Shown: one piece after another, positions 1 to 42,045 of the stretch
Layout of the letters: every line of letters begins with the position of its first letter
How positions within the stretch are numbered: the first letter of the stretch is position 1
DNA from: a virus
Direction: 5' to 3' (one strand)
Length of the DNA: 42,045 nt
Virus record (IMG/VR): IMGVR_UViG_3300045988_083426
Notes under the pieces: model-generated
What the model saw: only the letters and a program-made list of their open reading frames with translations
What the model was told of the DNA's origin: nothing
The model's database searches: none
Position numbers and translations under genes: made by a program

Positions 1-99
1 GCTTTTTTGAAAAGCGCCTAAAAAACTGCACGGAAAGCGGCCTGATTTCAGGCCACTTTTGAGACAACGGCCCCAAAATATGGTAGGATGGCCGTAGGA
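1..99. repeat. Terminal direct repeat, copy 1 (circular-assembly overlap)
   Basis: gcttttttgaaaagcgcc...ggatggccgtagga is identical to 41947-42045. Confidence 0.95.
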
Positions 100-287
100 T
101 GAACGAGCGAATCAAAGAGAGAAGGGAATACTTCGGGCTGAGCCAGCGGGAGCTGGCCCGGCGGGTCGGCGTGGGAAAGACCACGATCTCAGAAATAGAG
201 GGAGGGGATCGGCTGCCGAACGTTGAGACGGCGATACGCATAGCGAGAGCACTGGAAACCACCGTGGAGCAGCTATGGGGAGGGTAA
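99..287 (+). CDS. XRE-family helix-turn-helix regulator (62 aa)
   Basis: LSQRELARRVGVGKTTISEIEGG is a classic HTH_3 signature. Divergent from the integrase across the circular junction. Confidence 0.85.
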   Translation: MNERIKERREYFGLSQRELARRVGVGKTTISEIEGGDRLPNVETAIRIARALETTVEQLWGG

Positions 288-288
288 C

Positions 289-393
289 ATGGACAACAGG
301 AAGGTATTGATAGACGCAATCCTGCGCCTGCTGGCGCTGGCCGACGCGGAGCAGCTGCGGCTGGTGTATATCGCGGCGCTGAACTTGATTTAA
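289..393 (+). CDS. 34-aa microprotein, family copy 1 (MDNRKVLIDAILRLLALADAEQLRLVYIAALNLI)
   Basis: ATG lies 1 nt after the xre stop. Same length as, and about 20/34 identical to, the ORFs at 37681 and 38191. Confidence 0.55.
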   Translation: MDNRKVLIDAILRLLALADAEQLRLVYIAALNLI

Positions 394-2494: not shown

Positions 2495-2884
2495 TTATTC
2501 CGCGTCTTTTTTTTGCGCATCGCGCTGGGCGAGGAGCTTGTCGGCCATGTCGGAGAGGAGCTGCCACTGGGGCGGCTCGAGCCGGGCGAGGACGGAGACA
2601 AACTGCCGCTGAAACTCGCTGTCCGGGTCGCGGATGATGGACATGCAGAACTTCGTGATCTCCTCCTCGCGGGAAAGCTGCAGGAACATCTCCCCCTCGC
2701 CGCTGCGCAGCCAGCTCTCCGAGACACCAAACTCCCGGCAGATGGAGACAACTACGGAATCCAGCGGAACACGGGCGCCGCTCTCGTAGGCGGCGACGGT
2801 TCCTTGCTTTACGCCGATTCTCGCTCCGAAATCTGTCTGGTTGAGTTCGAGCGCTTTGCGCAAAAGTTTTATGCGTTCGTTCAT
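2495..2884 (-). CDS. CI-like XRE-family repressor (129 aa)
   Basis: LNQTDFGARIGVKQGTVAAYESGARVP is an HTH motif, followed by a non-peptidase C-terminal domain. AGGAGG SD; divergent from the rightward early genes. Confidence 0.8.
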   Translation of the reverse strand: MNERIKLLRKALELNQTDFGARIGVKQGTVAAYESGARVPLDSVVVSICREFGVSESWLRSGEGEMFLQLSREEEITKFCMSIIRDPDSEFQRQFVSVLARLEPPQWQLLSDMADKLLAQRDAQKKDAE

Positions 2885-5031: not shown

Positions 5032-5070
5032 TAGAGCGTAACACAAAGCAGAGTGAGATACAAGTGCGTG
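5032..5070. repeat. Intergenic cassette B, copy 2
   Basis: Identical 39-mer to 3996-4034. Confidence 0.9.
5035..5063 (-). promoter_or_regulatory. Leftward promoter in cassette B2
   Basis: -35 TTGTAT (5058-5063), 17-nt spacer, TG-extended -10 TACGCT (5035-5040). Confidence 0.5.
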
Positions 5071-5076
5071 AAGCAT

Positions 5077-5093
5077 CACGTAAAGTATGCGTG
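5077..5093. promoter_or_regulatory. U palindrome copy 5 (one arm mismatch)
   Basis: CACGTAAAGTATGCGTG, preceded by GCGTGAAGCA. Confidence 0.6.
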
Positions 5094-5104: not shown

Positions 5105-5320
5105 ATGAGGCAGATGAGAAGAAAGTCAATGCACTGCTCGGTAGAGCCGACGGATGACAGACCACTGTTTACGCATGAGCCGCAGATCAAAGCCGGGCAG
5201 CTCGATATGATGCCGGTAGGCGTGGTCGTCGCCACGCCGCTGGGGGATGACCCAAATGACATGCAGGGCTACCCGGGCAGCTGGGAAAAAAAGGCCGCAC
5301 TATGGGAGCGCGTCGAATGA
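5105..5320 (+). CDS. Small protein (71 aa)
   Basis: AAGGGGAG SD then ATG at 5105, downstream of U copy 5. Confidence 0.55.
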   Translation: MRQMRRKSMHCSVEPTDDRPLFTHEPQIKAGQLDMMPVGVVVATPLGDDPNDMQGYPGSWEKKAALWERVE

Positions 5321-27587: not shown

Positions 27588-30500
27588 ATGAGCGATTTTC
27601 TGAAACGGAGGATTCAGGAGCGCGACGAACAGCGGCGGGGCACGCAGGAGACGAGCGCGCCCGCCAGCTCGTTTTTGCAGCAGCGGATCCAGCAGAGGGA
27701 CACGCAGCGCGCGGAGAGCGGCTACCGCGCGCCGACGGGGACGCACAAGACGATGCTCGGCATGTCGCTCGAGGAGTACAAGGCCAAGCTCGACGAAGCG
27801 CTGGCGGCATGGAAGAGCACAAGCGCGACGACGGAGAGCGGCCTTGCAAACCCGAAGGAGGCACAGGCGCGCAAAACGTATCAGACGATGCGCAAGCAGT
27901 ACAAGGCCCTGCAGCAGCGCGAGAGCGAGAAGCAGCAGGCGCAGGCGGCGCAGCAGGAGTATGACGAGCTGCGCGTCGCAGACCTGAACGCGCTGAAGGC
28001 AAAGATGGACGCGGCGAAGGAATCGGCGGACGGCTCGGCGAAGGAGCGCGTCGTCGCGGGGAGCATCGTCAAGCAGAAGGACTCCGGCGCGCAGGCCGCC
28101 TATGAGGAGGCGGCGCGCAAGTATAACCTCGCGCAGCAGATCCAGTACGACGAGCGCGGCGCACAGGCGCTGGGCAAGCTCTCGGAGGAGGAAGCGGCGG
28201 CGGTCGACACGCTGGCAAAGAGCACAAACAAGGGGCGGAAAACGGACATCGTGGGCGCGGGGATCATCGACGAAATGCGCCGCAAGGCAACGAAGGTGCT
28301 CACGGACGCGGGGTACAGCGCGGAGGAGATCGACGAGCTGGCGAACTGGCGGGCGCGCCAGCAGAACGCGCAGAAGTATGACGCGGCGGTGGAAAAACGC
28401 GAGGCGCTCGCGGACAAGGGCCTCTGGGGCGCAGCGGCGGCGACGGCGCTGTCCGTGCCGGAGACGCTGCTGAGCGGCATCGGCGTGATCGACGTCGCCG
28501 TCCAGAACTACGAAAACCGCGGGACAGACCGCCCGGCGGATTACAAGCGCACGGCGATGCTGCCATACGCCATGGCGACGGCGGGGCGGAGCACGATCTC
28601 GAACAAGCTCGAACAGAACACCGACGCAGAGATCTTCGGGCAGAACGTCGCGGCGGGTGCTTACAACATCGGGACGAGCGTGCTCGATTCGACGGCGGTG
28701 GCGGGGCTGGCCGCGCTGGGCGTGCCGCCGCTGGCGGCGACGTCGCTGCTCGGCGGCGCGGCGGCGACGAGCGCGATGGTCGACGCGAAGGATCGGGGCG
28801 TTTCAGACGAGCAGGCAGTGCTCACGGGCCTTGCGGCGGGCGTGGCGGAATCGCTGTTTGAAGAAGTGTCTCTTGAGAAACTGCTCAAGCTGAAGCCGGC
28901 GGTCGGGACACTGGGGCAGCGAGTGCGCACGACGATCAAGAACGTGGGATTGCAGGCGGCGACGGAGGGCTCGGAGGAGTTCTTCACGACGCTGGCGAAC
29001 ACCATGACGGACAACCTGATTAACGGGGGACTGAGCGAATTCCAGCAGAATCTCCGGGGCTACATGGAGCAGGGGATGAGCGAGGAGCAGGCCCGGCGGC
29101 GCGCGTATCTGGATCTCGCGGGACAGCTGGCACTCGACTTCGGCGGCGGCGCCATCGCGGGCGGATTGATGGCGGGCGGACAGACGGCCATCCAGACCGG
29201 ACAGCGCAACGCGGCGATTGCGCAGGAGTACGGCGACATTGCGCGCGGCGCGGCGCAGGAGCGGCTTGAGACAAACGAGGGCGACCGGCTGGCGCAGGAC
29301 GTACAGAACCGTGTAAGCTCCAACCGGCGGGTCGGCGGCGGGGCCATCGCGGAGCTGGTGAGCCGAAACGTACAGGCGCAGAACGCGCAGACGCAGACGG
29401 CCATCGCGGAAGCGGCGGCGCAGCGGCTGACGGAGCTGGGCGAGACGGAGAACGTGGAGACCGTCGCGCAGGCGGCGGCGCAGCTGACGGCGGACCCGAC
29501 GATGAGCGCGGGCCGACGCCGGGCGGCGGAGAACGTCCTGAAGGGCAGCCGGTACGGCGAGCGCGTGCTCGGCGAGCTGACGGAGGGGATGCAGGCCGAC
29601 AGCGCGGAGAGCGCCCCCGCCGCGGTGCAGGAGCAGAGCGCCGTGCCGAGCGCGGAGCAGGTGCGGCAGGCCGTGGAGAGCACCCAACGGAGCCGGGGCG
29701 CGCAGAACCTGACGGAATCGCGCGGGGGCGAGGAGCGCACGCAGAGCGGGCGGCGGTTCGCGTCCGAATGGGCGGGGAACCTGCCGCAGGTGCTGACGGA
29801 GGACGCCTACGTCCGGCGGCTGAAAGAATTGCGCGTGAATCCCCAGGCGACGGACAGCCGGACGGTGACGGGCACGGCCTACAACAAGGAGAGCGGCAAG
29901 CTCGACGTGATTGTCCGGGGTACGGACGGCAAGGTGGAGACGATCCCGGCGGCGAAGGCGGCCACTACGGCGCGGCAGGAGCGGCTCATGGAGCTGGCGG
30001 CGGACGTGGGCGAGGCGGGGCCGCAGATGTTCGCGGCGATCCGCGACGGGCAGGACGTGGAGACGTATGCACGGCAGTGGAAGAACGCCTACACCTACGG
30101 CGAGAGCAACATCCCGCGCGCCTACGCGATGCAGTCGGACGCGGTGAAGTATCTGACGGCGGAGCAGCGGGACATCGCGTATGAAGCGGGAAAGGCCGCC
30201 TACGACCAGAAACAGACCAAGGCGCGCACGAAGCGCGCGGCAAGGGGGAACGATACCCACAAGGCAAAGAAGGGCACTGTGAAGCTCACAGGGGCCGTTA
30301 TCGGCGGCAAGCGGTATGACGGGGTGAGCAAAGCGTCGCTGACGGAGCGGCAGCGGGCGAACCTCAAGGTGCTGGGGCAGGTCGCGCAGGCGACGGGCGT
30401 TGACATCGTGCTCTATCAGAGCCGGGCGAACGCGCGCGGCGAGTACGAGGGGCAGAACGGCGCCTACAAGGACGGCACGCTCTATCTCGACATCAACGCG

Positions 30501-33500
30501 GGGAGAAACCGCGTGGGGGATCTGAGCGAGGTGGCCGTGGTGCGGACGGCGGCGCACGAGCTGACGCACTTTATTCAGGACTACAACCCGGCGGCTTACG
30601 CAGAATACCGCGATTATGTGGTGGGGCTGCTCACAGAGGAGCAGGGCATGGACTTCGACGCGCTGGTGGAGCACAAGCAGGCGCTGCAGAACGACCTGAG
30701 CTATGACGAGGCCGTGGACGAGGTGGTCGCGGACGGCAGCGAGATGCTGCTGCGCGACACGGCGGCGGTGCAGCGGCTGGCCGAGGAGAACCGGGGGCTG
30801 TTCCAGAAAATCCGGTCGTGGCTGCGCAAGTGGCTCGAGAACATCAAAAAGGCGTTCGACGGCGTGGGTGCGGAGCACGCGGAGGCAAAAGCGCTCGAAA
30901 AGCATCTCGAGGAGCTGCAGAAGCGCTGGGACGACGCGCTCGTCGGCGCGTCGCGAAATTTGCAGAGGAGCAGGGCGGAAGCGGAGAGTGCCGGCGAGAA
31001 AGCGTCCGTGCGTGGAAAATACTGGCGGCCGGATCTCAATCGGTCGGAATGGAATCTTCTGAACCGGCGGCTGGAGGAAGAAATCGAAAGTTCCGGACAG
31101 TATATTGACGAATCGACGAAATGGCTGTATGCTGATGAAAAAGGCGTACAGGTGTTCGCTTTGTACGGCATCGGTGACGGCACGGAGGCCACGCCGCTGT
31201 ATGCGGTTGGCGGGAAGCAGGCCAGATATGCGGCATCCCTTATGCAGGATGTTATTGAGGAGGTTGGAAGAAGTGACGGAAACGCAGAAGGATTTGATTC
31301 ATGGGCTGAAAATCTTCGGAGCAAAAACGGGAACTATCGTAGAAATTATGCTCAGGCTGGAGACGGAAAGCCAGCAGGAAGAAATGCTGGGCTACATGGT
31401 AGATCACAGGGACGCAACACCGGAAAGCCTGCTGGAGATGGCAAGGGCAAGTCGTCCGGCGTAAGGGAAAAGTTCTCCCTGCGAGACAGCGCGGGGCGCG
31501 AGCTGACGGCGGCGCAGCAGGAATACTTCCGTGACAGTCAGGTGCGGGATGCGGACGGGAATCTGCTGGTCATGTATCACCAGACAGAGGGCGCGTTCAC
31601 AGTGTTCGATACCCGGCACAAGGGCGCGGGAACCGGCGACGATGAAACGCCGTTCGGCATCTTCCTGAAACGGACGGCGCGGGATATCGGCGTTCGCGGA
31701 AAGAACCAGATGGAGCTTTACGCGAACATCCGCAACCCGCTGCGCGTGCGTGATCGCGCGGAGCTGGTCGAACGGCTTCGCGAGCTGTCCGGAACATACG
31801 CGGAGCTGAAAGACCAGTCGGGGAAGATCGACAAGGAATACGGCGCGAAGTTCGCAGAAGCGAAGGCCGCTTTCAAAAACTTCCTTTTGCAGTGGCGCAA
31901 GGAAAACCCGGATGCACCGAGCCGGGCGGCCTATGACGCGGAAGGTTTTGATGCCGCATTCGACGCAGAGGACAACGTGGTAAAGGAATGGACGCAGAAG
32001 AAAGACGAGCTTGCGCTGCGTGCGAAAGAGGCCATTACCGACGCGCTGCGCAAAAACGGCTATGACGGCGTGATTCTGGAGAGTGACCGTGGCAGCTGGG
32101 GGCGCAGCACGGATGCCTACATTGCGCTGGACGCGAATCAGGTGAAGAACGTCACGAACCAGAACCCGACGGAGGATCCGGACATCCGGTATTCCGCGCG
32201 GGATTATGGGTTGACGGAGGACGAGGAACATGCTATCGTCAGTTATAAGTCGGGCGACAGCTACGCGCTGAACGGGAAGCTCGCGACCGGCGGGAAGCTG
32301 ACAGAGCTGCAGAGGTCGCTGCGCGACCATCTGGACACGGCGCTGGAGAAGCTGCCGGTCTACAAAGGAACGGTGTACCGCCACTACGACTTCGACTCTT
32401 TCGGCGGGTACGAGGCAATGGCGGAGTTCCTGTCGCAGTTCGCAAAGGGCAGAGCTGTACCGATGAGCAGTTATCTGTCGGCCAGCACGGTGCGCAACGA
32501 GGATCGGACGAACGGCGAGTATACGGTCGACATGGTGATCCAGTCTGAGACGGGACGCAGCCTGAACGGTTTCGGTCGGGATACAGAGAACGAGGTGCTG
32601 CTGTCGAGGACGACCGAGCTGATCGCCGATTCTATGGAGCTTATCAGCCCGCACAAAGTGAGAATTACAGCACGGGAGGTTGTAAAAAATGGAACAGGAA
32701 CGGCCGCCGATTCTGCATCAGTTGGTGTGCGCGACGTGCGAGAAAGCGAACAGAGAACTGACGGATTGCGACAAGTATCCGGACGGAATCCCGGAGGAGT
32801 ACAGACGGAAAGTGGAAGGTCTGCCGGACGAGACGGGGACGCCGGATTGTCCGGACTACGAGAGGGAACACGATCCGGATCGCTGGGTGAACCCGGAGTG
32901 GAAAGCGATTATCGAGCAGCTGAGGAAGGGCTGAAATACCAGCCGAGGGAGCAGAGCGTGAGCGACCGGCAGATTCTGGCGAACGCGCTGGAGCGCGTGG
33001 CGCAGAACGAGCGGGAGAGGTCCATTCTCGCGGACTACCGGGAGAAGGCCGCAAAGATGGCCTTTTATGAGAGGGAGCTGGCTAAGCGCGAGCAGAAGAT
33101 CGCCGACCACCGCAGCGGAAAGGCCGTTCTCGAGCCGGACAAGCTCCGGCGGGCGGAGGTCTCGGCGCAGAAGTACGCCGCGCTGATCAGCCAGCAGGAC
33201 GAGCGGCTGCTGCGGCTGGAGAAGCTCAAGCCGCTGCGCGACGTGGTGACGCGGGAGCGAGACTACATCGCCGAGCGGCTGCGCGGCGCCGCGGAGGAGA
33301 AGAGCCGCTACACGGCGGAATTCGAGCGGCAGCTGAGCGAGGAGCGCAAGCGCGGCGAGGAGCGGCTGCAGCAGTACCGCAAAGGCCGCGAGGAGCGCGA
33401 CGACATCCGCGTGGAGCGGCGGCAGATCGAGAAGCTGGCGAAGCGGCTGACGACGTATCTCGAGGAGAACACGGACAAGAAGCACATCCCGGAGGCGCTG

Positions 33501-36500
33501 AAAAAGCCGATCGGGGAGCTGCTGCAGTCGCTGGACTTCTCGTCCAAAACAAAGCTCTCGTCCGGGGCGGCGACGAAGACCGACCTCGCGTACATCCGGT
33601 CGATGCAGCGGATCGAGGCCGTACTCGCGGCGCAGGAGCGGTTCGACGAGACGGGCGAGGGCGGCGACCTGATCACAGGGACGCTGGATCTGCCGAAGGG
33701 CTTCCGCGAGGCGCTGGCGGAGCAGATCGAGCGGGTACAGACGATCATGGAGACGCACCAGCCGGGCGAGCGCGCGGTCATGCGGATGAATCTCGCCGAC
33801 CTGCGGAAGCTGCGGGTGATGCTCTCGACGCTCTCCAGCGCGGTGACGAAGATGAACGAGCTGTTCGCAAACGGGCAGTTCCGGCACGTCGATCAGGCGG
33901 CGCAGGACACGATTTTTACGCTGCGCGAGAAGGGGCAGCACCAGTCGCTCCTGCCGAAGGTCGAGAGCTTCGTCCGGTGGGACAACACGCTGCCGTGGTA
34001 CGCGTTCCAGCGGCTGGGCGAGGGCGGACAGTCCATCTTCGCGGAGCTGCAGGACGGCTGGGACAAGCTGGCGTTCAACACGCAGAAGATCCTCAAATTC
34101 CGCAAGGAGCTGATCGACGACAAGACGGCGCGCAAGTGGGACACGGAGGTACACGAGGTCGAGCTGACCGACCAGGACGACAACACCGTCAAGGCGAAGC
34201 TGACGACGGCACAGCTGATGAGCCTTTACTGCCTCTCGCGGCGCCGGCAGGCGCTGGGGCATCTGCTCGGCGGCGGCATCCGGCCGGCGGATATCGAGCT
34301 GACGGCGAACATCAAAGACAAGGTGCTGAAAAAGACCGAGAAGCAGGACACGCACTATCACCTGACGGACGAGCGGCTGGGGCAGCTGCTGGGTCTGCTG
34401 ACGGACGAGCAGCGCGAGATCGCGCAGAAGATGCAGAAGTACATGACGGAGCAGGGCGCGACGTGGGGCAACGAGATCACGATGGCGCGCTGGGGCTACC
34501 GGGCGTTCACGGAGGAGAACTATTTCCCGCTGACGACCGACCGCGAGGACCGGCCCGCCCGCGCGGACGACGCGTCGGAGGGAAGTCTTTACCGGCTGCA
34601 GAACATCTCGGCGACGAAGCCGCTGACGCAGAACGCGAACAACGCGGTGATGCTCTACAGCATCTTCGACGTGTACGCCGACCACATGGCGGACATGGCC
34701 AAGTACAACGCGATGGTGCTGCCGATCCTCGACGCGCAGAAGTGGTACAACTACAAGGAAGGCCACAAGAACGAGGCGGGGCAGGTGAGCACATGGACGG
34801 TGCAGCGGACGCTGACGCAGGTTTACGGGCGGGACGCGAACCGGTTCGTGATCCAGTTCCTGAAGGACCTGAACGGCGTGAAGGAAAACGGCGCGCGGGG
34901 CGAGGGTCTCGCGAAGAAGATGATCTCGAACTACAAGCGGGCAGCGGTCGCGGCCAACCTGCGCGTGGCGCTGCTGCAGCCGACGGCGTATGTGCGCGCG
35001 TCGGCGGTGCTGGACGCGAAGTATCTGACGCGCGCCTTCGGCGAGCGGACGAGCACGAAGGAAGCGACGGCGGAGATGCTGGCGCGCAGCGGCATCGGCC
35101 TGTGGAAGAGCATGGGCATGTTCGACACGGACGTCGGCCGGAGTATCCGCGACCAGATCAAGGGCAAGGGCAGCGCGGTGGAATCGCTCGTGGACAAGAC
35201 GATGGTGCTCGCGGAGAAGGGCGACAGCATCACATGGGCGCGGCTCTGGCGCGCGTGCAAGCTGGAGGTTCAGGACAAGCAGCACCTCTCGGGCGAGCAG
35301 CTGCTGGACGCGACGGCGAAGCGGTTCCGCGAGGTGATCTACCGGACGCAGGTGATCGACAGCACCATGACGCGCAGCCACATGATGCGCTCGGGGTCGA
35401 CGTTTGTGGCGATCTTCACGAGCTTCATGTCGGAGCCGACCGTCTCCTACAACCTCATCATGACGGCATCGGAGAAGATCTGGGAGGACACGAAGAAGTA
35501 CGGCGCGAAGATGGCCGTGAAGCGCAACTGGAAGACGGCGGGGCGGGCGTGGCAGGCGTACATCCTGTCGGCGGTCGCGTCGGCGATGGTGGAAGCGCTG
35601 GCGGACGCATGGCGCGATCCGGGCGACGACAAGGACACGCAGAAGCTGCTCAACGCCTTCCGCGACAACCTCGGAAGCGACCTGAACCCGCTCAATAAGC
35701 TGCCGGGCCTGCGGGACATCTTCTCGATTTTCGAGGGATACGACACGAACCGGACGGACATGGCGGCGTTCAGCAACCTGAACAAGGCCATCGCCATCTG
35801 GAAGGAGACGATCCAGCTCGCAAACGGCACGATCGACGAGGCGACGGACACGACGTACCACGGGAACATGACGATCTACGGCAAGGTCTATAAAACGGCG
35901 CAGGCGCTGTCGCAGCTGAGCGGACTGCCGGTGTCGGCGACGATGCGCGAGGCGCAGGCGCTCTGGAACAACACGGTGGGCCGGTGGGCGCCGGGGCTGA
36001 AACAGAAGACCTATGACAACGAGAAGCAGCGGCTCATCCAGAAGGCCGGAACGGCCATGTGGAACGGAGACAAGGACGCATGGCAGGATGCATACGCGGC
36101 GCTGGAGCAGTACATGCTCGCAGACGGCAAGAGCAAGCGCGAGGCGGAGAGCGCCGTCTACAGCGAGATGCGCAAGGCCGTGAAGGATTCCTATCTCGCG
36201 GGCGAGCTGACGGAGACGGAAGCGCGGCAGAAGCTCGTGGACTTCCTCGGATCGGACGCGGAGAAGGCCGCGCAGCAGGTCACGAGCTGGAAGAATGGCT
36301 CGGAGTTTGCGAAGGAGGTCGGGTTCGAGTACGGCGAGATGCGCAGCGCCTATGAGACGGGACGGATCCAGAAGAGCGAGGCGGTGCGCCTGCGCCAGAA
36401 GTACGGCGGCGAGACGCAGGACGAGGCCGAGAGCAAGGTGCGGTACTGGGATTTCTGCATCGAATATCCGCAGTACGACGACATCAGCGAAGCGCGGGCG

Positions 36501-36743
36501 AACAAGTACTACGACTACTGCCGGCAGGCGGGCGTGGGCGTCGCGGCGTATTACAAGGCGGCGCAGTACACGGCGGCCATCGTGAGCGAGAAGGACGAGG
36601 ACGGCAACAGCGTCTCCGGCTCGGTCAAGCGGCAGTACGTGGAGTACATCCAGTCGCTGGGGCTCTCGGCAGCGCAGCAGAAGGCGCTGTGGCAGGCGCT
36701 GAAAAACGCGACATGGAGCGACAAGGGGACGCCGTGGGAGTAA
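27588..36743 (+). CDS. Giant polyvalent virion protein (3051 aa) with HExxH metallopeptidase and ADP-ribosyltransferase motifs
   Basis: One uninterrupted frame. AAHELTHFIQ at 30555-30569 (H990). ART R-S-ExE triad: VYRH (R1598, 32379), YLSAST (S1631, 32478), ENEVLL (E1667 and E1669, 32586-32594). Confidence 0.8.
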   Translation: MSDFLKRRIQERDEQRRGTQETSAPASSFLQQRIQQRDTQRAESGYRAPTGTHKTMLGMSLEEYKAKLDEALAAWKSTSATTESGLANPKEAQARKTYQTMRKQYKALQQRESEKQQAQAAQQEYDELRVADLNALKAKMDAAKESADGSAKERVVAGSIVKQKDSGAQAAYEEAARKYNLAQQIQYDERGAQALGKLSEEEAAAVDTLAKSTNKGRKTDIVGAGIIDEMRRKATKVLTDAGYSAEEIDELANWRARQQNAQKYDAAVEKREALADKGLWGAAAATALSVPETLLSGIGVIDVAVQNYENRGTDRPADYKRTAMLPYAMATAGRSTISNKLEQNTDAEIFGQNVAAGAYNIGTSVLDSTAVAGLAALGVPPLAATSLLGGAAATSAMVDAKDRGVSDEQAVLTGLAAGVAESLFEEVSLEKLLKLKPAVGTLGQRVRTTIKNVGLQAATEGSEEFFTTLANTMTDNLINGGLSEFQQNLRGYMEQGMSEEQARRRAYLDLAGQLALDFGGGAIAGGLMAGGQTAIQTGQRNAAIAQEYGDIARGAAQERLETNEGDRLAQDVQNRVSSNRRVGGGAIAELVSRNVQAQNAQTQTAIAEAAAQRLTELGETENVETVAQAAAQLTADPTMSAGRRRAAENVLKGSRYGERVLGELTEGMQADSAESAPAAVQEQSAVPSAEQVRQAVESTQRSRGAQNLTESRGGEERTQSGRRFASEWAGNLPQVLTEDAYVRRLKELRVNPQATDSRTVTGTAYNKESGKLDVIVRGTDGKVETIPAAKAATTARQERLMELAADVGEAGPQMFAAIRDGQDVETYARQWKNAYTYGESNIPRAYAMQSDAVKYLTAEQRDIAYEAGKAAYDQKQTKARTKRAARGNDTHKAKKGTVKLTGAVIGGKRYDGVSKASLTERQRANLKVLGQVAQATGVDIVLYQSRANARGEYEGQNGAYKDGTLYLDINAGRNRVGDLSEVAVVRTAAHELTHFIQDYNPAAYAEYRDYVVGLLTEEQGMDFDALVEHKQALQNDLSYDEAVDEVVADGSEMLLRDTAAVQRLAEENRGLFQKIRSWLRKWLENIKKAFDGVGAEHAEAKALEKHLEELQKRWDDALVGASRNLQRSRAEAESAGEKASVRGKYWRPDLNRSEWNLLNRRLEEEIESSGQYIDESTKWLYADEKGVQVFALYGIGDGTEATPLYAVGGKQARYAASLMQDVIEEVGRSDGNAEGFDSWAENLRSKNGNYRRNYAQAGDGKPAGRNAGLHGRSQGRNTGKPAGDGKGKSSGVREKFSLRDSAGRELTAAQQEYFRDSQVRDADGNLLVMYHQTEGAFTVFDTRHKGAGTGDDETPFGIFLKRTARDIGVRGKNQMELYANIRNPLRVRDRAELVERLRELSGTYAELKDQSGKIDKEYGAKFAEAKAAFKNFLLQWRKENPDAPSRAAYDAEGFDAAFDAEDNVVKEWTQKKDELALRAKEAITDALRKNGYDGVILESDRGSWGRSTDAYIALDANQVKNVTNQNPTEDPDIRYSARDYGLTEDEEHAIVSYKSGDSYALNGKLATGGKLTELQRSLRDHLDTALEKLPVYKGTVYRHYDFDSFGGYEAMAEFLSQFAKGRAVPMSSYLSASTVRNEDRTNGEYTVDMVIQSETGRSLNGFGRDTENEVLLSRTTELIADSMELISPHKVRITAREVVKNGTGTAADSASVGVRDVRESEQRTDGLRQVSGRNPGGVQTESGRSAGRDGDAGLSGLREGTRSGSLGEPGVESDYRAAEEGLKYQPREQSVSDRQILANALERVAQNERERSILADYREKAAKMAFYERELAKREQKIADHRSGKAVLEPDKLRRAEVSAQKYAALISQQDERLLRLEKLKPLRDVVTRERDYIAERLRGAAEEKSRYTAEFERQLSEERKRGEERLQQYRKGREERDDIRVERRQIEKLAKRLTTYLEENTDKKHIPEALKKPIGELLQSLDFSSKTKLSSGAATKTDLAYIRSMQRIEAVLAAQERFDETGEGGDLITGTLDLPKGFREALAEQIERVQTIMETHQPGERAVMRMNLADLRKLRVMLSTLSSAVTKMNELFANGQFRHVDQAAQDTIFTLREKGQHQSLLPKVESFVRWDNTLPWYAFQRLGEGGQSIFAELQDGWDKLAFNTQKILKFRKELIDDKTARKWDTEVHEVELTDQDDNTVKAKLTTAQLMSLYCLSRRRQALGHLLGGGIRPADIELTANIKDKVLKKTEKQDTHYHLTDERLGQLLGLLTDEQREIAQKMQKYMTEQGATWGNEITMARWGYRAFTEENYFPLTTDREDRPARADDASEGSLYRLQNISATKPLTQNANNAVMLYSIFDVYADHMADMAKYNAMVLPILDAQKWYNYKEGHKNEAGQVSTWTVQRTLTQVYGRDANRFVIQFLKDLNGVKENGARGEGLAKKMISNYKRAAVAANLRVALLQPTAYVRASAVLDAKYLTRAFGERTSTKEATAEMLARSGIGLWKSMGMFDTDVGRSIRDQIKGKGSAVESLVDKTMVLAEKGDSITWARLWRACKLEVQDKQHLSGEQLLDATAKRFREVIYRTQVIDSTMTRSHMMRSGSTFVAIFTSFMSEPTVSYNLIMTASEKIWEDTKKYGAKMAVKRNWKTAGRAWQAYILSAVASAMVEALADAWRDPGDDKDTQKLLNAFRDNLGSDLNPLNKLPGLRDIFSIFEGYDTNRTDMAAFSNLNKAIAIWKETIQLANGTIDEATDTTYHGNMTIYGKVYKTAQALSQLSGLPVSATMREAQALWNNTVGRWAPGLKQKTYDNEKQRLIQKAGTAMWNGDKDAWQDAYAALEQYMLADGKSKREAESAVYSEMRKAVKDSYLAGELTETEARQKLVDFLGSDAEKAAQQVTSWKNGSEFAKEVGFEYGEMRSAYETGRIQKSEAVRLRQKYGGETQDEAESKVRYWDFCIEYPQYDDISEARANKYYDYCRQAGVGVAAYYKAAQYTAAIVSEKDEDGNSVSGSVKRQYVEYIQSLGLSAAQQKALWQALKNATWSDKGTPWE
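31273..31464 (+). CDS. Nested alternative-frame ORF 1 (63 aa) inside the polyvalent gene
   Basis: GAGGAGG (31257-31263), 9 nt, then GTG. VTETQKDLIHGLKIFGAKTGTIVEIMLRLETESQQEEMLGYMVDHRDATPESLLEMA. GC3 about 60% versus about 38% for the host frame over the same nucleotides (hand count). Confidence 0.5.
   Translation: MTETQKDLIHGLKIFGAKTGTIVEIMLRLETESQQEEMLGYMVDHRDATPESLLEMARASRPA
32689..32934 (+). CDS. Nested alternative-frame ORF 2 (81 aa, Cys-rich) inside the polyvalent gene, right after the ART domain
   Basis: GGGAGG SD 8 nt before the ATG. CATCEKA...CDKYPDGIP...CPDYE. GC3 about 74% versus about 41% for the host frame (hand count). Confidence 0.55.
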   Translation: MEQERPPILHQLVCATCEKANRELTDCDKYPDGIPEEYRRKVEGLPDETGTPDCPDYEREHDPDRWVNPEWKAIIEQLRKG

Positions 36744-36971: not shown

Positions 36972-37226
36972 TCAGGACTTTATCTTTTGAAGGAGCGTTC
37001 CGACAGAGAACGGAAGAGGGGGCAGGGTATTTGACCGGTAGCGCTTCATGAAGTCTAAAACGGTTACACCCGTCAGTTCGTCCGTGTCGATGTCCCTCAA
37101 GTAGATAATACCAGCTTCGCTGTCGTCACCATAGGAATTGTCTCTATCTCCAAGGGCGACATACAGAACGTCGTATTTGGCATCGTAATCAAATTGCAGG
37201 CTTGCCCTCTGCGACATATAATGCAT
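36972..37226 (-). CDS. DUF2283-like protein (84 aa)
   Basis: LQFDYDAKYDVLYVALGD...GIIYLRDIDTDELTGVTVLDF matches the DUF2283 pattern (YD.e.D.lyi.l...G..i). Confidence 0.65.
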   Translation of the reverse strand: MHYMSQRASLQFDYDAKYDVLYVALGDRDNSYGDDSEAGIIYLRDIDTDELTGVTVLDFMKRYRSNTLPPLPFSVGTLLQKIKS

Positions 37227-37281
37227 CTCCCTTCGAGCTGCCGCTGCGCGGATTTTTAGAGGTTTCCCTCACGGCAAATCT

Positions 37282-37310
37282 ATTCTACCACGAAGGAGAC
37301 CTCCAGACAA
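37282..37310 (-). promoter_or_regulatory. Promoter of the DUF2283-like gene (R element copy 1)
   Basis: -35 TTGTCT (37305-37310), 17-nt spacer, TG-extended -10 TAGAAT (37282-37287). Confidence 0.6.
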
Positions 37311-37329
37311 GAAATTTTTGGATTAGGGG

Positions 37330-37370
37330 TTGACAAACGTATCCACGTAATATATTATAAACGTGGATAC
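37330..37370 (+). promoter_or_regulatory. Promoter/operator of RHH gene 1
   Basis: -35 TTGACA (37330-37335), 17-nt spacer, -10 TATTAT (37353-37358). Perfect inverted repeat GTATCCACGT (37339-37348) / ACGTGGATAC (37361-37370) brackets the -10. Confidence 0.7.
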
Positions 37371-37388: not shown

Positions 37389-37559
37389 GTGTCTCCTAAA
37401 GGACGGCCGACGGACGACCCGAAAACCCTGAATACAAGAATCCGGTTATCCGAAGAGGATACAAAGCGACTTGAGTTCTGCGCAGAAGCGCTGGGAATCA
37501 CAAAGTCGGAAGTGATTCGGCGGGGAATCAAGGAAGTCTATGACGGACTAAAAAAATAA
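37389..37559 (+). CDS. Ribbon-helix-helix (Arc/Mnt/CopG-like) repressor 1 (56 aa)
   Basis: GTG start after GGAGGT. TLNTRIRLSEEDTKRLEFCAEALGITKSEVIRRGIKEVY has a beta-strand plus two-helix RHH layout. Confidence 0.7.
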   Translation: MSPKGRPTDDPKTLNTRIRLSEEDTKRLEFCAEALGITKSEVIRRGIKEVYDGLKK

Positions 37560-37624
37560 CAGAAACGCCCGCCTGTGGAAAGTTGAGCGTTTCTGCTATT
37601 GAACCAGAGGTTTCCCAACTGGAT
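37551..37624 (-). ncRNA. Predicted antisense sRNA 1 (about 74 nt), Sar-like
   Basis: Promoter: -35 TTGTCT (37654-37659), 17-nt spacer, TG-extended -10 TAGAAT (37631-37636). Intrinsic terminator CAGAAACGC...GCGUUUCUG followed by UUAUUUUUU. Antisense to the 3' end of RHH1 and the downstream spacer. Confidence 0.55.
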
Positions 37625-37790
37625 AAATTCATTCTATCACAGTGGGAGCCTCCAGACAAGAACTATTTTGGAGGTTTATTATGGAAAATCGAATCACGCT
37701 GTTGGAGCAGATCGAGAGACTGCTGGCACTGGCCAGCGAGGAGCAGCTGCGGATCCTGTATGTGGCCGCGCTGTACCTTGTGTAAGGGGG
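37604..37790. repeat. R element copy 2 (about 187 bp direct repeat)
   Basis: About 5 mismatches against 38114-38300. Contains the leftward promoter and the 34-aa ORF. Confidence 0.9.
37681..37785 (+). CDS. 34-aa microprotein, family copy 2 (MENRITLLEQIERLLALASEEQLRILYVAALYLV)
   Basis: GGAGG SD 6 nt upstream. Identical peptide at 38191; the two nucleotide differences between the copies are both synonymous. Confidence 0.6.
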   Translation: MENRITLLEQIERLLALASEEQLRILYVAALYLV

Positions 37791-37834
37791 GTGGCGGTTG
37801 AACCGACACCCGCATAATTTTTTCAAATTAGGGG

Positions 37835-37873
37835 TTGACTTTTGTACGGACGTAATATATTATTTATGTACGG
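37835..37873 (+). promoter_or_regulatory. Promoter of RHH gene 2
   Basis: -35 TTGACT (37835-37840), 17-nt spacer, -10 TATTAT (37858-37863). TGTACGG direct repeats flank the -10. Confidence 0.65.
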
Positions 37874-37892
37874 GCAAAAGTGAGGTGATTGC

Positions 37893-38069
37893 ATGTCCCC
37901 GAAAACAGGACGCCCGACCAGCAACAAGAGAACCAAACGGCTTGAAATCCGGATGGCACCTGATGAAGCGCAGCTCCTTCAGGAGTGCGCGGATGAACTT
38001 CAAGTGTCGAAAACGGAAGTAATCGTCAAAGGAATTCGACTTGTGAAAGCTGAGTTGGAAAAGAAATGA
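37893..38069 (+). CDS. Ribbon-helix-helix repressor 2 (58 aa)
   Basis: MSPKTGRPTSNKRTKRLEIRMAPDEAQLLQECADELQVSKTEVIVKGIRLV, an RHH layout. N-terminal MSPK..GRPT is shared with RHH1. Confidence 0.7.
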   Translation: MSPKTGRPTSNKRTKRLEIRMAPDEAQLLQECADELQVSKTEVIVKGIRLVKAELEKK

Positions 38070-38134
38070 GCGCATGGGCTACAGCTTGCAGGCACACCCA
38101 TACGCTCAAAACACCAGAGGCTTCCCAACTGGAT
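38058..38134 (-). ncRNA. Predicted antisense sRNA 2 (about 77 nt)
   Basis: Same promoter as sRNA 1: -35 at 38164-38169, -10 TAGAAT at 38141-38146. Terminator GAGCGUAUGGG...CCCAUGCGCUC followed by AUUUCUUUUCC. Confidence 0.5.
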
Positions 38135-38300
38135 AAATTCATTCTATCACAGTGGGAGCCTTCAGACAAGAATTATTTTGGAGGTTTATTATGGAAAATC
38201 GAATCACACTGTTGGAGCAGATCGAGAGACTGCTGGCACTGGCCAGTGAGGAGCAGCTGCGGATCCTGTATGTGGCCGCGCTGTACCTTGTGTAAGGGGG
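38114..38300. repeat. R element copy 3
   Basis: Near-identical to 37604-37790. Confidence 0.9.
38191..38295 (+). CDS. 34-aa microprotein, family copy 3
   Basis: Same peptide as 37681-37785. Ends 12 nt before the ant start codon. Confidence 0.6.
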   Translation: MENRITLLEQIERLLALASEEQLRILYVAALYLV

Positions 38301-38307
38301 TGGCGGC

Positions 38308-39069
38308 ATGAACGATCTGACGGTGTTTCAGAACCCGGAGTTCGGGGAGATCCGCACCATCGAAGAAAATGGCGACGTGCTGTTTTGTGGAACTGATGTT
38401 GCAAAGGCGCTGGGGTATATTAACCCGCGCGATGCAGTTGGGAGACGCTGCAAAGGCGTCGTGAAACGCGACGCCTATACAAATAGGCGACAGACAATGT
38501 CCTTCATTCCGGAAAGCGACCTGTACCGGCTTGTATTCGGCTCGAAGCTGCCGTCCGCGGAACGCTTCGTGGACTGGGTGACGGAAGAAGTCCTCCCCAG
38601 CATCCGCAAGACCGGGCGGTACGAAGTCCAGCCGAAGCCCATGACGATGGCCGAGAACGTCGCGGCGCAGGCGCAGCTGCTGGTGGAGCAGGAGCAGCGC
38701 ATCGCGCGGATCGAGGAGCGGGTGGAGACGGCGCTGACGGCCATCGCCCGCCCCAGCGGGGACACATGGGTGGAGGACATGAAGGCGGCCATCGCGGGGT
38801 ACTGCCGCGCGACGGGGCTGACGGAACCGGCGGGGCGGGGGCGGCTCTACGCGATGCTCGACCGGGAGGCCAGCTGCAATACGGACGCCCGGCTCCGGCG
38901 GCTGCGCCAGCGGCGGAAGGAGACGGGGGAGCGCCGGCGGGACTACATGGCGCTCACGAAGCTGGACGCCATCGCAGTGGATCAGAAGCTGCGGGTGGCC
39001 TTTGAGGGGCTCGTGGCCCGGGAAAACGCCCGCGCCGCGCAGAAGGACGAAATTGCCAAGCGCTTGTGA
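38308..39069 (+). CDS. ant: Antirepressor with BRO-N domain (253 aa)
   Basis: LTVFQNPEFGEIRTIEENGDVLFCGTDVAKALGY...SFIPESDLYRLVFGSKLPSAERFVDWVTEEVLPSIRKTG is the Bro-N/AntA signature. Confidence 0.85.
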   Translation: MNDLTVFQNPEFGEIRTIEENGDVLFCGTDVAKALGYINPRDAVGRRCKGVVKRDAYTNRRQTMSFIPESDLYRLVFGSKLPSAERFVDWVTEEVLPSIRKTGRYEVQPKPMTMAENVAAQAQLLVEQEQRIARIEERVETALTAIARPSGDTWVEDMKAAIAGYCRATGLTEPAGRGRLYAMLDREASCNTDARLRRLRQRRKETGERRRDYMALTKLDAIAVDQKLRVAFEGLVARENARAAQKDEIAKRL

Positions 39070-40850: not shown

Positions 40851-41876
40851 CTACTTGTCCGGTGAGATCAGATCGTCGAGGGCAGATTCGATGGCGGCGT
40901 CATAGGTACGCTCGCTCTCTTTGAAAATATGCTGGTAGGTTGTCTTGAGCATATTGTTGGTGGCGTGACCCATACGCTTGATGCTGTATTTATCCGGGAT
41001 ATGCGCTTCAAGCATGACGGAGGCATTGACGTGGCGCAGATCGTGGAAGCGATAGTGCGGGACACCGGCTTTTTCGCAGACGCGTGAGAAGCCGCAATAG
41101 ATGGCGTGGCCGGTCAGGGTGGTGATATGCTCATCGGTCTGCGGGGTACGGGCGAGCAGATCGCGCAGGTAGGCGGGGAGGTGCACCCGGCGGGCGCCGC
41201 TATAGCTCTTCGGCCCCTTCTCGGCGGCGCCGTTTTCGCCATCGACGATGGCGGTATGTATGTTTACATACTCGCCGTCGATGTCCGACCAGCGCAGGCC
41301 GCGGATCTCGCTCGCGCGCAGGCCGAGACAGATGGCCAGCATGATGGGCAGCTCGTACTTCGTGCCGCGGCAGGTCTCGGCGATGGCCTGCACCTCGGCT
41401 TTGGTGGGGATCTGGATCTCGTGTTTCTCCTTCTGCGGCAGACGCGTGGTCAGCTTCACGTCCGGGCGGAACTCGGAGAGAACGGCGCTCAGAAAGCCAT
41501 GGGCATTGGCGATGGTCTTCGGGGATTTCCCAGCTTTGACCATACGGTTGACCCAGCGCTGGATAGATTCCTGCGTCAGCTCGGGCAGGAGCGTGGCGGC
41601 GATGGGCGGGAGGAGGTTCTTCCGGATCCGCTTATAGCCGGCAACGGTGGCGGGGGATAGTACGGCGTCGCGCCGCTCGATATACTGGTCAGCGGCTTCG
41701 CCGACGGTCAGGCGGCGGGCGGGCTTTCTGGCATCTTTGATACGGGTCTTGATGCCGGCGGCCCAGAACTGCGCCTCCTCGGGCGTATCGAAGGTTTCGC
41801 CGTAGCGCTGGCCGCCCACCTGCACCTGCACCCGGTAGCGGCCGGAGGGGAGCTTTTCTACTTTGGGGATTTTCAA
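40851..41876 (-). CDS. int: Tyrosine recombinase / phage integrase (about 341 aa)
   Basis: Catalytic pattern LRASEIRGLRW ... HDLRH ... GHATNNMLKTTYQH. N-terminal arm-binding-type domain (GRYRVQVQVGGQRYGETFDTPEEA). AGGAGGA SD favours the TTG at 41876 over the track start at 41897. Confidence 0.9.
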   Translation of the reverse strand: MKIPKVEKLPSGRYRVQVQVGGQRYGETFDTPEEAQFWAAGIKTRIKDARKPARRLTVGEAADQYIERRDAVLSPATVAGYKRIRKNLLPPIAATLLPELTQESIQRWVNRMVKAGKSPKTIANAHGFLSAVLSEFRPDVKLTTRLPQKEKHEIQIPTKAEVQAIAETCRGTKYELPIMLAICLGLRASEIRGLRWSDIDGEYVNIHTAIVDGENGAAEKGPKSYSGARRVHLPAYLRDLLARTPQTDEHITTLTGHAIYCGFSRVCEKAGVPHYRFHDLRHVNASVMLEAHIPDKYSIKRMGHATNNMLKTTYQHIFKESERTYDAAIESALDDLISPDK

Positions 41877-41946
41877 GGGGAATCCTCCTTTCTTCAATTA
41901 CGGGGCATACTGCCAGCATAGGGGCGGACGATGCAGAAGTCAATAC

Positions 41947-42045
41947 GCTTTTTTGAAAAGCGCCTAAAAAACTGCACGGAAAGCGGCCTGATTTCAGGCC
42001 ACTTTTGAGACAACGGCCCCAAAATATGGTAGGATGGCCGTAGGA
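41947..42045. repeat. Terminal direct repeat, copy 2
   Basis: Identical to nt 1-99. Confidence 0.95.

Follow-up and report, generated by a model that had tools for sequence, protein, structure and literature searches.

A viral DNA of 42,045 nucleotides (IMG/VR record IMGVR_UViG_3300045988_083426, its full length hereafter called the window) carries three copies of a short open reading frame (ORF) which, judged by its conservation across metagenomes, appears to encode a real protein of 34 amino acids, belonging to an unnamed family found only in temperate phages of gut Clostridia. Two of the copies lie behind genes for ribbon-helix-helix (RHH) repressors, one of these just ahead of the antirepressor gene ant, and the third follows a gene for a small XRE-family DNA-binding protein. 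As the best explanation of the whole arrangement, to which we give somewhat less than an even chance, we propose that the peptide is a small effector of the lysis-lysogeny decision, controlled by an antisense RNA and a leader structure and with ant coupled to its translation. A six-frame profile scan of the window identified exactly three copies, each consisting of 34 codons and a stop:

37681-37785, plus strand: peptide gene copy 1 (ant-linked type, 34 aa), last gene of the RHH1 operon
38191-38295, plus strand: peptide gene copy 2 (ant-linked type, 34 aa), first cistron of the peptide-ant unit
289-393, plus strand: peptide gene copy 3 (XRE-linked paralogue, 34 aa), beginning 1 nt past the XRE stop

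Copies 1 and 2 encode the same peptide, MENRITLLEQIERLLALASEEQLRILYVAALYLV, from genes that differ at two bases, both synonymous (ACG/ACA and AGC/AGT), while the peptide of copy 3, MDNRKVLIDAILRLLALADAEQLRLVYIAALNLI, has 20 of 34 residues, and its gene 70 of 105 nucleotides, in common with them. A Shine-Dalgarno (SD) sequence precedes every copy, TTGGAGG at 7-8 nt before copies 1 and 2 and GGAGGG before copy 3. The latter also abuts the XRE stop (TAAcATG, a 1-nt gap), and the XRE gene appears to be co-transcribed and translationally coupled with it. The first-pass annotation of this DNA, made from the sequence alone, was right about the positions and length of the ORFs, the identity of two of the peptides, the roughly 59% identity of the third and the presence of an SD or translational coupling at each copy. 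It had exchanged their settings: the copy that it placed 1 nt after the XRE stop as copy 1 is in fact the one at 289 (XRE gene at 99-287), the copies behind RHH1 and RHH2 are those at 37681 and 38191, each 121 nt downstream of its RHH gene, and it is the copy at 38191 that stops 12 nt short of ant, that at 289 leading to the hicAB promoter. It also missed the extent of the duplication around copies 1 and 2 (about 188 nt), a truncated further leader copy, and an antisense promoter with its terminator.

Homologues of the peptide are abundant. A word-indexed search with a 47-aa extended frame as query returned 65 clusters, nearly all of 34-35 aa, and an exhaustive hidden Markov model profile search of 1.8 billion representative proteins gave 22 clusters at E<1e-3, all of them peptides of about 33-37 aa that stand alone, apart from evident artefacts of upstream extension or readthrough; no fusion of the peptide to a larger domain occurs among these 1.8 billion proteins. 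A metagenome-wide DNA-pattern census of the peptide core produced 70 hits, comprising 62 intact ORFs of 34-37 aa, four that are cut by contig ends (three without the N-terminus, one without the stop) and four in unrelated long proteins. None of the 70 is an interrupted peptide ORF, and no homologue among those examined pairs an interrupted ORF with a conserved nucleotide repeat, the pattern named in the first-pass annotation as indicating an RNA or DNA element. Exact peptide sequences are present on 932 and on at least 1000 public contigs from human-gut metagenomes, the latter figure being that for the sequence of copy 3, and the family as a whole recurs as intact ORFs of 33-37 aa in thousands of metagenome contigs, which places the three copies in the window beyond chance. 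A narrow scan of a genome collection yielded two metagenome-assembled genomes (MAGs) only, and the hosts that have a name are one uncultured Clostridiales MAG and one Agathobacter MAG; the prophage is integrated beside smpB.

The pattern of nucleotide change is that of a coding sequence. The reading frame is open in all 42 distinct nucleotide versions, whereas the other five frames are open in 9-34 of the 42, and substitutions counted along a minimum spanning tree of these versions are synonymous in 140 cases and nonsynonymous in 125, where 28% synonymous would be expected (p=5e-17). Furthermore, the invariant Arg13 is written AGA, CGA, AGG and CGC, close pairs differ synonymously only (synonymous to nonsynonymous, 6:0 and 4:0), N-terminal insertions and deletions are multiples of three, and the position of the stop is fixed. 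With AlphaFold2 run on the family alignment, the peptide is confidently predicted to fold as a two-helix hairpin (helices 2-17 and 20-33; predicted local distance difference test score, pLDDT, 92.7), in which helix 2 is nearly all hydrophobic. The earlier view of a genuine microprotein family, conserved, helical and without a signal peptide, is therefore upheld. The Q-L-R codons CAGCTGCGG (37744-37752, 38254-38262 and 352-360), which contain the palindrome GCAGCTGC, are the same down to synonymous sites in 12 of 13 distinct versions retrieved without use of the CAGCTGCGG motif, the exception being L009 (AAG, Lys); this constancy may reflect codon bias or an extra constraint at the nucleotide level.

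No described family accounts for the peptide. Pfam, PHROGs, NCBIfam and PADLOC gave no match (none but noise at E<=1), a sequence-profile search of the PDB gave only repeat-driven matches to designed proteins and none to SinI or SinR, Foldseek found 0 matches to the model in the PDB, and nothing was found in 50,697 deposited phage genomes (INPHARED) by DNA search and tblastn. The claim that the ORFs are absent from gene calls holds for the ORF track supplied with the window and fails for public gene callers, which do call them; no public source checked has a name for the product.

The antirepressor operon and its leader

From the order and kind of its genes, the segment RHH-leader-peptide-Ant appears to be an immI-like antirepressor operon. 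Its parts in the window are the following:

37330-37358, plus strand: RHH1 promoter (TTGACA-17-TATTAT), overlapping an 11-bp inverted repeat that is a candidate operator
37389-37559, plus strand: RHH1 repressor gene, 56 aa, GTG start (Pfam RHH_1 E=5e-5; phrog_876 E=5e-15)
37835-37863, plus strand: RHH2 promoter (TTGACT-17-TATTAT)
37893-38069, plus strand: RHH2 repressor gene, 58 aa (phrog_876 E=1.2e-13; NikA-like E=9e-5)
38308-39069, plus strand: ant, Bro-N antirepressor gene, 253 aa (Bro-N E=5e-21; phrog_130 'anti-repressor Ant' E=1e-45)
37631-37659, minus strand: antisense promoter 1 (TTGTCT-17-TGaTAGAAT)
38141-38169, minus strand: antisense promoter 2
37547-37624, minus strand: predicted cis-antisense RNA 1, about 78 nt, a 5' stem-loop and an intrinsic terminator, overlapping the RHH1 stop (z=-6.4)
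38056-38134, minus strand: predicted cis-antisense RNA 2, about 79 nt (z=-3.4)
37607-37674, plus strand: putative leader switch 1 (5' arm 37607-37617; 3' arm or anti-SD 37643-37654; SD 37669-37674)
38117-38184, plus strand: putative leader switch 2 (5' arm 38117-38127; 3' arm or anti-SD 38153-38164; SD 38179-38184)
about 37259-37322: truncated third leader copy without a peptide ORF, with a minus-strand promoter inside (37310 to 37282)

Copies 1 and 2 belong to a near-identical duplication of about 188 nt (37603-37790 and 38113-38300, 5 mismatches) that includes about 78 nt of leader. A promoter scan revealed sigma-70-like minus-strand sites in all three leader copies (TTGTCT, 17 nt, TG-n-TAGAAT), and the extended -10 element, as its reverse complement, gives ATTCTAyCA, a conserved stretch that had looked like a hairpin loop. 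In the ant-linked leaders examined individually, the -10 TAGAAT and the TG are invariant, the spacer is 17 nt long and unrelated in sequence between leaders, and the -35 element is TTGTCT or TTGACT; across the census, the -10 motif stands upstream of every ant-linked copy but that of L073. Directly behind the RHH stop lies a hairpin for which we found four unrelated sequences, each with a stem of 12-16 bp, and because an A-run precedes each hairpin on the plus strand, it should act as an intrinsic terminator for the minus strand only. The antisense RNA thus predicted measures 73-79 nt in all lineages where the terminal T-run was found (in L012 none lay within the 90 nt scanned) and folds alike in seven lineages (z -3.4 to -6.4; 0-1 of 200 shuffles fold as well); Rfam contains no match for it. 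Promoter, terminator and fold appear, on these comparisons, to be conserved across lineages, and the RNA family, absent from Rfam, is a further candidate for study.

The two predicted antisense RNAs lie upstream of both SDs, and they are not complementary to the ribosome-binding site (RBS) of ant. Their complement in the mRNA forms the 5' arm of a leader hairpin, and the 3' arm of this hairpin is complementary to the peptide SD. The stem of this hairpin covaries between leader types (GAGGUUUCC/GGAAGCCUC versus CCAGAAGGAUU/AAUCCUUCUGG), and folding with the antisense-covered part blocked lets the anti-SD:SD helix form in both types. Nothing like this leader accompanies the divergent paralogue at 289.

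At the other end of copy 2, the 12-nt gap to ant is kept in relatives, with 11 or 13 nt in three variants. The spacer, GGGGGTGGCGGC or a close variant, makes a good SD for ant that overlaps the peptide stop, and in the lineage of the window the ant SD and AUG are buried in a hairpin of -32 kcal/mol formed with the 3' end of the ORF. The peptide and ant share a frame here (38293-38310) and the 12-nt spacer reads Gly-Gly-Gly-Gly, so that readthrough of the TAA would give a linker-joined fusion; since the 11- and 13-nt variants break the frame, the in-frame spacer is probably a side effect of a G-rich SD. A peptide-ant readthrough fusion was ruled out on account of these variants, ant's own SD and ATG, and the lack of any such fusion among the 1.8 billion representatives. 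Behind copy 1 (37786-37830) we observed the scar of an ant start, GGGGGGTGGCGGTTGAAC (37786-37803, ATG changed to TTG), followed by a terminator-like hairpin with a T-run and, beyond these, the RHH2 promoter; the junction is found again in L001, which marks it as a recurring module boundary.

Exchangeable and constant neighbours

In relatives with the ant-linked type, the order is RHH gene, about 118-127 nt, peptide gene, the short gap and ant. The same leader and peptide are preceded by any of at least five unrelated RHH sequences or, in some loci, by a gene of 125 aa that is not an RHH gene, and Ant is mosaic past its first 14 or so residues. Several relatives without ant still hold RHH, leader and peptide. 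The RHH gene with its promoter and operator thus looks like an exchangeable immunity cassette, and as it is swapped for unrelated cassettes or for the 125-aa gene while the peptide stays unchanged, a specific partnership between RHH protein and peptide is unlikely.

Two side observations concern these loci. In L001, the lost body of ant is replaced by two 33-nt palindromic units, 119 nt apart (5053-5085 and 5172-5204), and the same ant-loss junction is present in L055, L073, L088, L090 and L103; the units resemble type I-C CRISPR repeats (…GTGGATTGAAAT), flank the last 45 or so nt of ant and are followed by a 36-nt tandem duplication, and the window has no such repeat. In a second lineage, a ToxN (type III toxin) gene lies directly upstream of RHH-peptide-ant (L012 95-610, L014 3105-3602, L019 145-642).

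The XRE-linked type is accompanied by a second regulator, which in the window is one of these two neighbours of copy 3:

99-287, plus strand: XRE-family helix-turn-helix (HTH) gene, 62 aa (Pfam HTH_3 E=4.6e-16)
2495-2884, minus strand: CI-like repressor gene, 129 aa (HTH and conserved helical C-domain), putative target of the peptide

In relatives, an XRE gene of 62-67 aa precedes the peptide gene with a gap of 1 nt or an overlap of 4 or 11 nt (ATGA in L023, 11 nt in L062), and in L023 and its relatives the XRE-peptide operon closes at a strong bidirectional terminator. A frameshift fusion of XRE and peptide was discarded as a candidate, as it would need a +1 shift at GGG-TAA-C and the junction is not conserved. 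The L044 lineage has no XRE gene and a monocistronic peptide gene with its own SD and terminator, and the L050 lineage is a decayed remnant with a frameshifted XRE gene that is the source of readthrough variants in databases; its peptide makes up 16 of the 70 census hits, in at least two nucleotide variants. The XRE-peptide pair lies beside the integrase gene and, in relatives, is convergent with the CI-like repressor gene. Every locus of this type with enough flank has a CI-like repressor of one family on the opposite strand, at a distance of 30-140 nt, or of 0.9-2.1 kb where morons such as hicAB intervene. The N-terminal HTH of this repressor is mosaic, with at least four unrelated versions, while the C-terminal part of about 65 residues is conserved (in the window, L023, L044, L062 and others). 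A search for homologues with the CI-like protein gave near-identical sequences only, and no solved homologue of the C-domain was found.

Taken across these loci, the peptide gene is not associated with any one upstream DNA-binding protein; what stays constant around it is the start of ant, the XRE gene (for one paralogue) and the CI-like repressor gene. Each paralogue sits in a cassette of the kind 'small repressor then small effector' within the lysis-lysogeny circuitry. The earlier claim that each peptide gene lies directly downstream of a DNA-binding regulator, which the peptide modulates, is not supported in that form by this comparison: the RHH genes are about 120 nt away and exchangeable, and one lineage is monocistronic without XRE.

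A proposed circuit and its alternatives

We propose the following circuit. The RHH (or XRE) protein would repress its own operon and so keep the peptide off; when the RHH promoter fires, transcription would read through into the peptide gene. The antisense RNA, starting at the promoter inside the leader and ending at the minus-strand-only terminator behind the RHH gene, may add a post-transcriptional lock through the leader switch: by pairing with the 5' arm it would free the 3' arm to pair with the peptide SD, turning off the peptide and, through coupling, Ant. Translation of ant would follow that of the peptide, so that the ant-linked copy may serve as well as an upstream cistron whose translation licenses ant, like P1 icd and Gifsy-1 orf45. 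Finally, the peptide may be a small effector of antirepressor type that influences the lysogeny switch in trans, most plausibly by binding the helical C-terminal domain of the CI-like repressor, comparable to AimX with AimC or SinI with SinR. This last step is suggested because the peptide keeps its sequence while the RHH and Ant variants change, because it also occurs alone, and because it is always linked to a repressor with a conserved C-domain; the AimX precedent lends further support. A bolder version, which we consider doubtful, makes the peptide a universal small antirepressor of a C-domain common to CI-like repressors of different immunity types, with two to three copies under separate sensors (XRE; RHH and the antisense-gated leader) forming a multi-input decision device and Ant as a second, translationally slaved output.

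Several observations weigh against parts of this circuit. Pairwise ratios of nonsynonymous to synonymous substitution rates (dN/dS) of 0.2-0.6 indicate only moderate purifying constraint on the peptide. The ends of the antisense RNA depend on a transcription start site assumed to lie 7 nt past the -10 element, and its promoter could be a duplicated copy of the promoter of an 84-aa gene farther upstream (see below); lineages without that gene keep both promoter and terminator, so the element is more than a displaced copy. In two leader variants, the SD-hiding helix is already the minimum-free-energy fold without the antisense RNA, and the switch accordingly remains a model. The hairpin over the ant RBS is strong in the lineage of the window only and is not conserved across lineages, and as Ant has a good SD of its own, the coupling may be weak. 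As regards the target, the CI-like repressor is implicated through guilt by association, and its linkage to the peptide may merely reflect membership of a common lysogeny module. The architecture of the C-domain has as its sole support a single-sequence model of low confidence (pLDDT 54.8), and an hhalign comparison of the peptide with the C-domain of two CI-like proteins was null (probability 0.2%). A candidate in which the peptide is a SinI-like copy of the C-terminal helices of CI was likewise set aside, since a likeness seen by eye (…PPQWQLL… against …EEQLRIL…) is statistically null.

Among the alternatives, a host-directed small effector or toxin, for example one that blocks cell division like P1 Icd or lambda Kil, with the upstream XRE or RHH protein as its dedicated repressor or antitoxin-like partner, seems to us unlikely. 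The layout would match P1 c4-icd-ant (PMC8198154, PMC11897509), the XRE-peptide pair resembles a two-gene operon of toxin-antitoxin style (overlap or 1-nt gap) and lies beside hicAB in a moron zone, the peptide stays as it is through exchanges of RHH or Ant variants, as would fit a target that is constant and lies outside the module, and the almost wholly hydrophobic helix 2 needs a partner. Yet searches of PHROGs, Pfam, NCBIfam and PADLOC revealed no likeness of the peptide to Icd or to a toxin or defence family, so that with type II toxin-antitoxin systems it is the shape of the operon that fits and not the protein; moreover, the monocistronic lineage has no adjacent antitoxin-like gene, and the consistent linkage to a CI-like repressor points to phage regulation. 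We regard as rather improbable the idea put forward in the first-pass annotation, that the peptide is a partner of the adjacent XRE and/or RHH protein, be it as co-repressor, dimerisation adaptor or inhibitor. What is found upstream of the ant-linked copies (unrelated RHH cassettes before an identical peptide, or the 125-aa gene instead), the L044 lineage without XRE and the lack of an XRE-peptide fusion among the 1.8 billion proteins all argue against it, although the XRE-peptide junctions (TAAcATG, ATGA, the 11-nt overlap) suggest production at 1:1, the XRE protein of 62-67 aa is a bare HTH without an oligomerisation domain, and XRE and peptide diverge in step. One form of partnership, in which the peptide would be a minimal RHH mimic that poisons RHH dimers, was ruled out by the model, which is all-helical from residue 2.

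A purely cis-acting upstream ORF, the translation of which opens or couples the ant RBS while its product is functionless, is very unlikely. Precedent exists in Gifsy-1 orf45-anrP (PMC4825925), and the fixed gap to ant, the overlap of the ant SD with the peptide stop and the pairing of the 3' end of the ORF with the ant SD and AUG would all fit; the amino-acid sequence is conserved with an excess of synonymous changes, however, unlike that of Gifsy orf45 (PMC4825925), no gene lies downstream of the XRE-linked and monocistronic copies, and a confident fold is predicted. A coupling device for ant, as the first-pass annotation had also suggested, is therefore plausible for the ant-linked copy and not the whole story, given the conserved amino-acid sequence, an XRE-linked paralogue that ends its operon at a terminator, and ant-less relatives that keep RHH and peptide. 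A ribosome-arrest or cis-only leader peptide was rejected too, as it does not fit the operon-terminal and monocistronic copies. That there is no gene at all, the repeat being a DNA or RNA element (a promoter/terminator module or a recombination scar) and the ORF incidental, is largely refuted and strains belief: the duplicated block does carry a promoter and leader structure, does mark recombination junctions of RHH cassettes and does contain the core CAGCTGCGG, nearly invariant even at synonymous sites, but these elements lie 5' of the ORF, which is conserved separately, with its frame open in 42 of 42 versions, its codon-position pattern, indels in threes and fixed stop, and the divergent paralogue at 289 is without any such leader. 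On balance, the peptide is probably not a partner of the upstream regulator, nor merely a coupling device.

In its immI region, P22 has two RHH genes, mnt and arc, together with ant and the antisense RNA sar (PMC2629481). Here as there, an RHH repressor gene precedes the gene for the antirepressor, and both belong to a moron located in the late region or next to it; the window likewise has two RHH repressors, and a small antisense RNA of about 70 nt (predicted in the window) is encoded opposite the spacer after the RHH gene. The window differs in having a gene for a 34-aa protein between RHH and ant, in an Ant that is a Bro-N protein, and in a host that is a Gram-positive gut anaerobe; its predicted antisense RNA has no sequence or Rfam likeness to sar, and as it pairs with an upstream leader arm and covers no RBS, its repression would be indirect. 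The immI region of P1 comprises c4 RNA, icd and ant, and Icd has 73 aa and a target of its own, FtsZ (PMC8198154, PMC11897509). P1 and P7 (c4, icd, ant1/2) share with the window a small ORF directly before ant and an antisense RNA that acts (in the window, is predicted to act) at the translation of this ORF, and in P1 its product has a function of its own. In contrast, no PHROG or Pfam match links the peptide to Icd (a direct pairwise alignment of the two was not made), c4 is released by processing of the same transcript and targets a'/b' sites where the predicted RNA of the window is cis-encoded on the opposite strand, and the P1 operon is under C1, not RHH. P1 icd and ant are reportedly translationally coupled, as Riedel in 1993 and Biere in 1992 are said to have found.

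In the isrK-orf45-anrP region of Gifsy-1, a 45-aa upstream ORF is coupled to the antirepressor gene and opened by a small RNA by way of alternative structures, and orf45 is conserved as nucleotide sequence, not as peptide (PMC4825925). A short ORF before an antirepressor gene, concealment of its RBS by alternative leader structures, the equilibrium of which is shifted by a small RNA of about 77 nt, and a coupling that relays the signal to the antirepressor are all paralleled in the circuit proposed here. The Gifsy RNA, however, is sense-encoded and activates, whereas that of the window is predicted to be an antisense repressor, and orf45 overlaps anrP (AUGA), whereas the window has a 12-nt gap and a conserved peptide that is also found without an antirepressor gene. 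For the peptide itself, a parallel is AimX, a group of helical antirepressors of 29-80 aa that bind the C-terminal oligomerisation domain of AimC (bioRxiv 10.1101/2025.11.23.689978). Both are helical proteins of Firmicutes phages, of about 30 aa, encoded downstream of a regulator and convergently with an HTH repressor whose C-terminal domain is helical (here according to the low-confidence model), and in both the DNA-binding domain of the repressor varies while the partner module persists. The upstream gene is an XRE gene of 62-67 aa or an RHH gene in our loci, in which no AimR-like gene or AimP was seen, and AimX has no detectable sequence relation to the peptide. SinI antagonises SinR by binding, and antagonists of this type are similar to the oligomerisation helices of the repressor itself; the peptide differs in having no detectable similarity to the CI-like C-domain.

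The kind of circuit is thus known already, and the protein family at its centre is new. The predicted module would bring together features known singly from P22 (RHH and antisense RNA), P1 (a small ORF with a function, ahead of ant) and Gifsy-1 (leader switch and coupling), and would do so in Gram-positive gut anaerobes, where the control of prophage induction is poorly understood. Phage lysis-lysogeny decisions are increasingly being traced to small proteins as their effectors, AimX being a recent example, and this family is very abundant, unannotated and, at 34 aa, easy to test. Should the peptide target a conserved repressor domain, it would offer a handle to induce a widespread gut prophage across immunity types, and if it is a universal antirepressor, one of the commonest prophages of the human gut would contain a multi-input decision device.

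Further features of the window

Positions 1-99 of the window are repeated exactly at 41947-42045, and this terminal repeat of 99 nt indicates a circularly assembled (or terminally redundant) phage genome. Circular assembly makes the integrase gene (40851-41897, minus strand), on the left, and the XRE gene divergent neighbours. Between their starts, a palindrome was found just 5' of the -35 element of the XRE promoter:

39-54 (also 41985-42000): palindrome GGCCTGATTTCAGGCC, candidate operator

Its core CTGATTTCAG is kept in the distant relative L023 (about 2740-2750), and the palindrome is a candidate operator common to the divergent int and XRE genes. Directly 3' of copy 3 lies a hicA/hicB toxin-antitoxin operon (394-480 and 484-1151), absent in the relative L034, with a promoter TTGACA…TATACT set within four ATACGT repeats.

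Upstream of RHH1, an 84-aa gene on the minus strand (36972-37226; weak DUF2283 match, phrog_36767) is driven by the third minus-strand promoter copy (37310 to 37282). Its use of the antisense-type promoter module suggests an ancestral control region, divergent in layout, that received the RHH cassettes by insertion. Just upstream of the whole module is an ORF of 3051 aa (27588-36743), the product of which appears to be a giant 'polyvalent' phage protein; homologues in relatives carry ART-PolyVal, ADP-ribosyltransferase and PBECR5 domains.

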